Shown here: one piece after another, positions 1 to 1,150 of the stretch
Layout: every line of letters starts with the position of its first letter
How positions within the stretch are numbered: position 1 is the stretch's first letter
From: Candidatus Vogelbacteria bacterium
Lineage (GTDB): Bacteria; Patescibacteriota; Minisyncoccia; Phycocordibacterales; XYD1-FULL-46-19
DNA length: 47,834 bases
Assembly: GCA_016188295.1 (NCBI GenBank)
Contig: JACPIA010000001.1
Span: 1 to 47,834 of the forward strand
Direction: 5' to 3'
The notes under the pieces: generated by a model
Told to the model about the DNA's origin: nothing
Seen by the model: only the letters and a program-made list of their open reading frames with translations
Databases searched by the model: none
Translations under genes and position numbers: made by a program

Positions 1-1051
1 ACTAGATTAGCACTCTAATTGCATCACTTCACTTCTTCAGAAAGAGCTGCTTAGGACTTTTGAATTTCAATCGTTTTCGTTCTCGATCGTTGAGTCGCCT
101 GACGACATCCGCCAATTCTTTTGGAGTAATCACATTGAAGTCGATGGACCTCGGGAAATACTGACGTAAGAGTCCGTTGGTATTCTCGTTCGTGCCTCGC
201 TCCCAAAAATGATATGGATATGCAAAATACACGGTCATGCCGGACTTCTTTTCAAGATGTTCCCAGTCAGAGAATTCAGGCCCATTGTCGAGAGTGGCCG
301 TCTTCCGTTTCTTCTTTGGAATGCGCTTGAATCTCTCGATTGCAAGTTTCGTCAGAAGCTCCGCATTCATCTTCGGCAAGAGAAATGCGATGAGGTATCC
401 CGTTCTGCGATCGACAAACGAAACGATGCGCACCCTCCTGTCTCTTCCCATCAAGGTATCACCTTCAAAATCTCCGAGCCTCCCTCGGCGTTCAACGATC
501 TTCGGCCGCTCGTCAATGCGTCGTTTCTTGGCTTGTTCCCTTATTGTTTCTCTCTTCTTGGTGCCATGTCTCCTCCGATACTTTCCTTTTTGTGATCGTA
601 GATATTGCTTGAGATGCGGTGTCCGCTCCTTGATGTATCGGTAGATGGTGCTTGGGGCAAGCGTCTTTCCTTTTCTTTTCAGGACACCGGAGATTTGTTC
701 GGGTGACTTGTGAAGCTTCAATTCTTTCTTGACGAAGCGAAGCAGCGTTCCTTTGATGACCCGAATACTTTCCATGGCAGCAATGCGCTTCATGCGTTTT
801 CCGCGTCTTGCCTCGTGCGGATCGTATCCATTCCTTCCCCCGTATTCCTTGACGTGCCTTGAAACCGAACTGATGTCCTTGCTGATGGCGTGGGCAATGT
901 CCCGGAGCGAATATCCAGCCTTCAGCATCCGCGAAATGCAGGATCGGTCGCCCGAACCTATGTGTGTATGTGACATCCTTCCAGTGTGAGGCCCCGAAAG
1001 GGTGTTGCAATTAGCCTGCAAACTTTGTTGCGTTTAGAGTGAGAATTCACT
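1..1051 (-). mobile_element. IS30-family insertion sequence, complete copy
   Basis: Contains a DDE transposase. Imperfect terminal IRs: actagattagcactctaattgcatcac (1-27) vs agtgaattctcactctaaacgcaacaa (revcomp 1025-1051). Left boundary is set by where identity with the second copy at 47699 stops. Confidence 0.9.
29..976 (-). CDS. IS30-family transposase
   Basis: N-terminal HTH (GYSLRDIAHAISKDISSVSRHV), SPEQIS and STIYRYI motifs, DDE residues in FEGDT / LDNGPEF / WERGTNENTNGLLRQYFP. ATG at 976 preferred over the track start at 1021. Confidence 0.95.
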   Translation of the reverse strand: MSHTHIGSGDRSCISRMLKAGYSLRDIAHAISKDISSVSRHVKEYGGRNGYDPHEARRGKRMKRIAAMESIRVIKGTLLRFVKKELKLHKSPEQISGVLKRKGKTLAPSTIYRYIKERTPHLKQYLRSQKGKYRRRHGTKKRETIREQAKKRRIDERPKIVERRGRLGDFEGDTLMGRDRRVRIVSFVDRRTGYLIAFLLPKMNAELLTKLAIERFKRIPKKKRKTATLDNGPEFSDWEHLEKKSGMTVYFAYPYHFWERGTNENTNGLLRQYFPRSIDFNVITPKELADVVRRLNDRERKRLKFKSPKQLFLKK

Positions 1052-1060
1052 AACGACAAA

Positions 1061-1089
1061 TTGACAGATTAATATGTATTTGCTCTACT
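1061..1089 (+). promoter_or_regulatory. Putative sigma70 promoter of the DGR-target-like gene
   Basis: TTGACA-N17-TCTACT with an extended TG. The -10 has a mismatch at a conserved position. Confidence 0.45.
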
Positions 1090-1150
1090 TAGAATTAGAT
1101 TAGAATCTGGCATTGGACCTAGTTTGACAACAAAGGAAAGGAAGCTGACC

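Follow-up and report, generated by a model that had tools for sequence, protein, structure and literature searches.

Insertion sequences (ISs) of the IS30 family are ~1.0–1.25 kb long in ISfinder descriptions, with one open reading frame (ORF), imperfect terminal inverted repeats (IRs), and a target duplication of 2–3 bp. Their transposases join an N-terminal helix-turn-helix (HTH) to a DDE core with acidic residues spaced D-(54–61 aa)-D-(33 aa)-E, a family rule as quoted in PMC2516522; IS30 itself makes 2-bp duplications and inserts by preference at near-palindromic hot spots or at its own IRs, the two kinds of target described within the family (PMC9333248). Promoter homing in bacteria has been described for one superfamily only, that of the TnGBS integrative and conjugative elements, ISLre2, and the ISKra4 group, which have Mutator-like transposases and make oriented insertions 15–17 bp upstream of the −35 box of sigma-A promoters (Guerillot et al. 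2014, PMC3942029). Here we describe an IS30-family IS in a contig of a Candidatus Vogelbacteria bacterium (JACPIA010000001.1). The window that we analyzed is this whole 47,834-bp contig (C1) of a 573,798-bp, 11-contig genome (G000), and the four copies in that genome each lie 9 nucleotides (nt) upstream of a TTGAC motif that begins a promoter-like sequence.

From these sequences and those of its relatives, this is very probably an active IS30-family IS whose transposase picks its targets by the −35 box of sigma-70-type promoters. The supporting data show a fixed offset, a near-fixed orientation, a 3-bp duplication, no other sequence signal, and wide conservation; the habit is conserved across a large branch of the IS30 family centered on the Patescibacteria, small uncultured bacteria in which such ISs are common. 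The IS30 case is thus a second, unrelated DDE family with promoter homing.

The element and its four insertions

The element has the build of an IS30-family member: it is 1051 bp long with a single ORF, its insertions carry 3-bp duplications, and its left and right inverted repeats (IRL and IRR, beside the start and the 3′ end of the transposase gene, respectively), read from the tip inward, are alike at 17 of 25 positions. The IRL tip reads ...GAGAATTCACT, and relatives keep the form ...TTAGrrTGnnAATTCAnn. The open frame of the transposase extends back beyond its ATG to a TTG at 1021, from which the protein would have 330 aa. It matches the NCBIfam model NF033563 (IS30 family transposase) over model positions 1–267 of 267 with 231.4 bits against a cut-off of 80; the second-best model, IS481, reaches 39.9 bits against a cut-off of 224. 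An HTH_38 domain is found at the N-terminus (E 1.5e-9), and rve scores 28.8 bits, which is below its cut-off of 32.6. The catalytic residues D173, D230, and E264 are invariant in an alignment with 8 diverse relatives, and because 56 and 33 residues lie between them, the protein has the D-56-D-33-E spacing of the IS30 family. Only IS30 models (HTH_38, rve, NF033563) match; the transposase is not recognized as a Mutator-like (p-MULT) DDE transposase.

A blastn search of the genome with the IS returned the full copy and seven contig-end stubs of 136–140 nt, all 100% identical. There are four IRL junctions (C1:1051, C1:47699, C11:10969, and C9:7900) and four IRR junctions (C10 at both ends, C7, and C6), and the IRR tip is adjoined by four different flanks. 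TTGAC stands at flank nt 10–14 in all four IRL flanks (N9-TTGAC), with the −10-like hexamers TCTACT, TATACT, TAGCCT, and TATAAT 17 nt past the −35 hexamer. Because TTGAC occurs in this genome at 0.0012 per position and strand, finding it in four of four flanks is far beyond chance. The first three nucleotides of the IRL flanks (AAC, TAT, TAC, TAT) and the last three of the IRR flanks (TAC, AAC, TAT, TAT) form identical sets, which means that the genome has four complete insertions, all with a 3-bp target duplication.

A preliminary description of the window, made from its letters alone, had proposed promoter targeting from the two junctions visible there. Both read as it gave them: gagaattcact (1041–1051) is followed by aacgacaaa (1052–1060) on the left and, on the minus strand, gagaattcact (47709–47699) by tatttgtgc (47698–47690) on the right, each leading into a −35 hexamer, 17 nt, and a −10 hexamer (Table 1). 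That description had also considered that the junctions might be assembly artefacts, and coincidence between two sites might be added to this; the copy on the right is cut off by the contig end, and the assembly is interrupted at each copy. However, the 1051|1052 junction is present in contigs of four public groundwater runs from one study, two of which may be the source sample, and in the two deep runs the depth of the IS unitig was 956 versus 232 for the flank in one and 240 versus 59.5 in the other, that is, 4.1x and 4.0x. This shows that the junctions are real and indicates about four copies. The same layout also recurs in two single-contig genomes and 54 independent metagenome contigs, and we put the chance of an artefact or a two-site coincidence close to nil.

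The genes downstream of the four copies all differ. Two are the window ORFs, one is a 137-aa ORF without a family, and one is greA followed by a class-II aminoacyl-tRNA synthetase. The earlier suggestion that the promoters drive orphan genes thus holds for both window ORFs, which have no Pfam family, but not for the copy on contig C9 (L218), where the IS lies 9 nt upstream of the promoter of greA (1477–1953, then the synthetase, of Asp/Lys/Asn type, at 14–1468). Because one copy precedes such housekeeping genes, the insertion site appears to be harmless. The greA ATG is only ~10 nt past the −10 hexamer in this locus, and from this sequence the greA mRNA would be leaderless or nearly so.

Table 1. 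Features of the IS copies, adjoining promoters, and downstream genes in the window
Feature	Position	Strand	Remark
Complete IS30-family insertion sequence, 1051 bp	1..1051	−	Single fully assembled copy of about four in the genome
IRR, terminal inverted repeat at the 3′ end of the transposase gene	1..25	+	IRR tip is the exact contig start
Transposase, 315 aa from ATG at 976	32..976	−	NF033563, HTH_38, rve
IRL, terminal inverted repeat by the transposase start	1027..1051	−	End adjoining promoters
3-bp target-site duplication AAC	1052..1054	+	Partner copy at right end of contig C7
−35 hexamer TTGACA, host promoter	1061..1066	+	9 nt from IS tip
−10-like hexamer TCTACT, TGC before	1084..1089	+	17 nt past −35; weak −10 matrix score
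Downstream ORF, 251 aa, ATG at 1151, GGAAAGGAAG Shine-Dalgarno-like stretch ahead	1151..1906	+	No Pfam family
Stub of second IS copy (IS positions 1051–916), 136 nt, ended by contig edge	47699..47834	+	IRL tip at 47699
3-bp target-site duplication TAT (minus strand)	47696..47698	−	Two IRR flanks end in TAT, so partner not assignable
−35 hexamer TTGACT	47684..47689	−	9 nt from IS tip
−10 hexamer TATACT, TGC before	47661..47666	−	17 nt past −35
Downstream ORF, 94 aa, GAGGAGG Shine-Dalgarno stretch ahead	47303..47587	−	No Pfam family

The window contig is bounded by two inverted copies whose IRL ends point inward (1–1051 and 47699–47834), and across the genome the assembly breaks at every copy, with seven contig ends stopping 136–140 nt within the IS. 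Two further observations come from the public runs. In run X1, one contig consists of the flank and the last 51 nt of the IS (1001–1051) followed by 43 nt unlike the IS; this contig, which departs from the IS at window position 1001, may be a truncated-element variant or an assembly tip. Within clpP, a diverged version of window positions 2034–2276 with the same length occurs in low-depth contigs of two runs and is probably from a related strain.

Insertion sites of close relatives

No copy of the IS itself was found among the 60 related genomes searched; the transposase is present in 31 of 401 genomes of the same order. A complete, single-contig 1.09-Mb genome (G369) has a transposase 70% identical to that of the window and 10 copies of a 1040-bp IS that are mutually 100% identical, which points to a recent transposition burst. 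Six of these 10 copies have an exact TTGAC at flank nt 10–14, one has TTGCAA at the same offset, and one has a weak −35 together with an extended −10 (TGG-TATATT) at the expected distance; 8 of the 10 carry a 3-bp duplication.

A protein-guided scan of metagenome contigs yielded 79 loci, 71 of which have transposases 70–81% identical to that of the window (clade A). We excluded 8 distant loci (L123–L130), 4 without the 5′ end of the transposase (L077, L085, L113, L121), 9 with a flank shorter than 45 nt, 1 duplicate (L094, equal to L093), and 3 with a truncated transposase (L119, L120, L122; their flanks have TTGACA, TTGATT, and no −35 but an extended −10, respectively). Together with 4 flanks from G000 and the first five from G369, the 54 metagenome contigs gave 63 non-redundant IRL flanks. 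Promoter-like sites were defined as the best hit of a simple −35/−10 scoring matrix with a threshold score of at least 8.

An exact TTGAC occupies nt 10–14 in 42 of the 63 IRL flanks, and position by position the counts are T 58, T 59, G 55, A 56, and C 52. Information in the sequence logo is limited to these five positions and a blurred TGn/TAnnnT (−10) signal at nt 30–38; IRL flank nt 1–9 and the 52 IRR flanks carry no sequence signal. The best promoter-like site lies at offset 9 in 44 of 63 IRL flanks compared to 4 of 51 IRR flanks, and at 0.08% of 5000 random positions in the window's own genome. The proposal made from two sites is therefore borne out by the full set of flanks, in which the distance from the IS end to the promoter peaks at a single nucleotide. 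Orientation, which the preliminary description had seen to be the same at both junctions, is nearly fixed: the IRL lies beside the promoter and the transposase gene is directed away from it, with one clean reversed case, which has a duplication (L087). At three loci (L096, L106, L109) the IS is flanked on either side by a TTGAC promoter at offset 9 and lacks a target duplication; chimeric contigs or back-to-back promoters may account for this.

Insertion could in principle be random, with only the harmless insertions upstream of promoters surviving. Intergenic survivors are expected in gene-dense genomes, and a forward ORF starts 39–300 nt out in 34 of the 38 flanks of at least 400 nt, a count that has no control figure. 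However, selection cannot produce an offset sharp to one nucleotide (44 of 63 at offset 9, 3 elsewhere) or a fixed orientation. The same offset is seen in recent copies that are mutually 100% identical, and IS30-family relatives of other bacteria, put through the same analysis, have no such peak. We therefore consider the absence of targeting highly improbable. Together with the −10 and TG counts given below, the ORF count suggests that the targets are genuine promoters.

Several observations weigh against targeting of the −35 box. In G369 one copy has no promoter and another has the −35 at offset 8, one nucleotide closer; of the 63 IRL flanks, 16 stay below the threshold for a promoter-like site throughout, and in 3 the best site falls at a different offset. 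The 3-bp duplication is found in only 23 of 57 metagenomic elements, which is far above the 1/64 expected by chance and well below the rate in complete genomes. We provisionally ascribe this low rate to contigs that merge flanks from separate copies, or to copies having recombined with each other. Searches in the same-genus genomes, in G193 (a congener of G369), and in the four runs yielded no empty site: flank DNA searches in two same-genus genomes matched only part of clpP, the neighborhood being different; those in G193 reached only 69–71% identity; and no contig of the four runs spans an empty site at 1051|1052. Finally, no transposition event has been observed. Because of the duplications and the diversity of the flanks, we infer that the promoters are older than the insertions.

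Recognition of the promoter

By analogy with IS30, transposition would be of the copy-out/paste-in type through a circle with joined ends, a route known for the family (PMC9333248, PMC3299598). Integration by 3-bp staggered cuts would then place the IRL tip exactly 9 nt upstream of TTGAC (3 nt of duplication plus 6 nt). With a 17-bp spacer the insertion point lies at about promoter position −45 to −42, and the transposase gene faces away from the promoter. Such an insertion disrupts neither the core promoter nor the downstream gene, and copies can therefore build up in a very compact genome.

How the motif is recognized is a separate question, and we give about an even chance to direct reading of duplex TTGAC by the DNA-binding part of a transposase bound at the IRL end. 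A −10 with a score of at least 4 (spacing 16–18) is found at 35 of the 63 sites (56%), and of these, 22 have a spacer of 17 nt, 10 one of 16 nt, and 3 one of 18 nt. The −35 is constant at nt 10–15 while the −10 shifts with spacer length, and the distance of insertion is therefore measured from the −35 and not from the −10. All five letters of TTGAC are equally conserved, and consensus TTGACA occurs without a recognizable −10 at L060, L081, L116, and L118. The N-terminal HTH is said to have a role in the choice of hot spots by IS30, in studies by Nagy in 2004 and by Kiss in 2007. Against direct reading, the −35 is poor at L122, G282, and L220, where an extended −10 nonetheless stands at the right distance.

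These last three sites are among the observations that could instead be explained if the transposition complex docks on region 4 of sigma or another part of the RNA polymerase holoenzyme and integrates at its upstream edge. Full promoters are enriched among the targets: compared to the 56% given above, a −10 of the same score is found at 26% of 144 intergenic TTGAC motifs in the window's own genome and at 6% of all 1373 TTGAC motifs there, and the best −10 hexamer has TG before it at 31 of 59 related sites. In G350, a genome with a more distant element (clade B, below), the −10 is at nt 34–39 in all 6 copies and 2 left-end relics, even at one site with a 16-nt spacer, where the −35 is shifted by one. 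The published homing elements TnGBS, ISLre2, and ISKra4 likewise depend on sigma-A promoters (PMC3942029). However, in the close clade it is the −35 that is fixed and the −10 that moves, several targets combine a perfect TTGACA with no visible −10, the A and C of TTGAC are no less conserved than TTG, and selective survival of harmless insertions alone would be enough to raise the share of true promoters among intergenic TTGAC motifs. We thus regard docking on sigma or polymerase as possible, though short of probable. The corresponding evolutionary reading, in which docking on sigma-A region 4 or RNA polymerase would make this a second, independently evolved polymerase-guided transposon with left-end relics, which persist before promoters in several genomes, perhaps kept as upstream promoter elements, is somewhat less likely still.

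Two comparisons leave the balance between these modes as it was. The −35 and −10 scores are uncorrelated (rho 0.13, p 0.33), which favors neither. When the N-terminal HTH was compared to sigma region 4 with E values up to 10, weak Sigma70_r4 matches appeared only in one clade-B element and a non-targeting proteobacterial control, and clades A and C had none, which gives no support for or against sigma likeness. An estimate of how often ordinary promoters of the window's own genome have TTGAC, anchored on the −10 (13 of 267 strong −10 hits), was uninformative because false −10 hits swamp the set.

The preliminary description had further pointed to sequence shared by the two window promoters. 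The motif 'GTATWTGCTMTACTT' is present in both, but because TG precedes the best −10 in so many of the related sites, it reflects the local extended −10 consensus (TGn + TAnnnT) and no special link between the two sites. A third promoter-like site in the window, on the minus strand at ~46695–46730 and without an IS, consists of TTGACA, 17 nt ending in ATATGC, and TAGCAT, with a small ORF downstream; it agrees with the same extended −10 consensus.

A last possibility is that the −35 is mistaken for the inside of an IS30-type terminal repeat, in which case homing would be derived from insertion beside IRs. IS30 inserts beside its own IRs (PMC9333248), and 3 of the 63 flanks (L055, L083, L117) are tips of other IS30-type elements 1–3 nt away in place of a promoter. 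At L083 the resident repeat has TTCAAC at nt 10–15, where promoter targets have TTGACA, and repeat positions 7–12 in clade A read TTnnCA. Yet this match covers 4 of 6 positions and could be due to chance. The target logo is TTGAC and not the repeat's invariant TGAATT..CA, nt 6–9, which would equal TGAA, are without information, and the register does not fit clade B, with its offset of 10. These results make mimicry of an IR quite improbable.

Breadth within the IS30 family and relation to known systems

To extend the comparison beyond the close relatives, an alignment-guided scan of one genome per species gave 80 loci. Automatic end-finding from IR and duplication was noisy, and we counted only elements whose ends were set by several copies or by a 3-bp duplication. 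Clade C, 38–45% identical, occurs in metagenome-assembled genomes (MAGs) of Moranii-, Paceibacterota, Nomurabacteria, and Saccharibacteria, and also in MAGs labelled Dormiibacterota and Limnocylindria. In 11 of the 13 elements whose ends were validated, the best site lies at offset 9 on one side, and 8 of these score at least 8; the side is usually that of the IRL, with one case at the IRR. Clade B is a separate clade, ~30–40% identical, with offset 10 in 8 of 9 cases and either orientation; one of its copies (L016, on contig C3 of G081) was not scored because its IRL flank is mostly N. In 13 control elements (7 copies from a Cardiobacteriales MAG, 3 from a betaproteobacterial MAG, and 3 single elements from other proteobacterial or Chloroflexota MAGs), no flank scores at least 8 at offset 9 or 10, and three copies from Anatilimnocola, a planctomycete, had no promoter site at the flank by eye.

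In a quick maximum-likelihood tree of 73 transposases, clade A is nested in clade C, and A plus C has an SH-aLRT support of 94. Clade B (support 100) and the proteobacterial clade without targeting branch separately. Because the backbone is unresolved, promoter homing may have had one or two origins. Group consensus sequences of the N-terminal 140 residues revealed no signature common to the promoter-homing clades and missing from the others. Nor did a comparison of IR asymmetry, the determinant of orientation in TnGBS, ISLre2, and ISKra4, find a clear difference in symmetry between clade A, with the promoter at the IRL, and clades B and C, with both orientations.

Solo IRL relics also occur at the normal offset before promoters, with the rest of the IS gone, at L225:151–201 (51 nt) and L226:151–187 (37 nt), both in G350. 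A relic of ~40 nt in G053 (L002:1501–1540) is followed by 9 nt and then TTGACT-N17-TACATT.

The window's element thus resembles IS30 of E. coli, IS1655, and ISApl1 in its family model (NF033563), in its HTH_38 domain and the 56- and 33-residue spacing of its DDE core, and in its single ORF in ~1.05 kb. It also shares with IS30-type elements the imperfect terminal repeats of ~25 bp, the short target duplication, and the occasional insertion beside another IS30-type end. Unlike IS30, it has a one-sided target, with TTGAC beside the IRL and no signal in the opposite flank, a 3-bp duplication, and a promoter as its site. A near-palindromic two-sided hot spot as in IS30 was not seen in the 52 IRR flanks or in IRL nt 1–9, which are without information.

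Promoter homing, and insertion on either side in some lineages (ISKra4 in the published group, clade B here), are shared with TnGBS, ISLre2, and ISKra4. The differences are a transposase of the IS30 family rather than of the Mutator/IS256-like type, a distance of 9 nt (clades A and C) or 10 nt (clade B) in contrast to 15–17 bp, and hosts that are mainly Patescibacteria here and mainly Firmicutes there; no link to conjugation was seen in the present elements. They behave like TnGBS, ISLre2, and ISKra4 but are not members of that group, as transposase family, distance, and hosts differ. IS30-family transposases also serve as integration enzymes of prophages, namely the 'IScream' phages (PMC12823448) and Lagaffe (PMC5883640), which in contrast to the present elements are phages of 30–50 kb. 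A term search of those two articles gave 0 occurrences of 'promoter', so no promoter targeting is described there. In the full-text literature covered, which is without the subscription papers on IS30 and IS1655 and without ISfinder and TnPedia, we found no promoter targeting by an IS30-family element.

These findings should interest researchers who work on transposition and those who work on Patescibacteria genomes. To our knowledge, the mechanism of promoter homing in TnGBS, ISLre2, and ISKra4 is unsolved, and the different geometry found here (9 bp, 3-bp duplication) offers an independent system for asking how a transposase recognizes a promoter. Landing at a fixed distance upstream of the −35 could become a tool for promoter trapping or insulation. 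Each insertion also marks a promoter to the base in organisms without transcription data. For the Patescibacteria themselves, the element shows mobile DNA persisting in ultra-compact genomes, this one holding 4 copies in its 0.57 Mb and a 1.1-Mb relative 10 identical ones.

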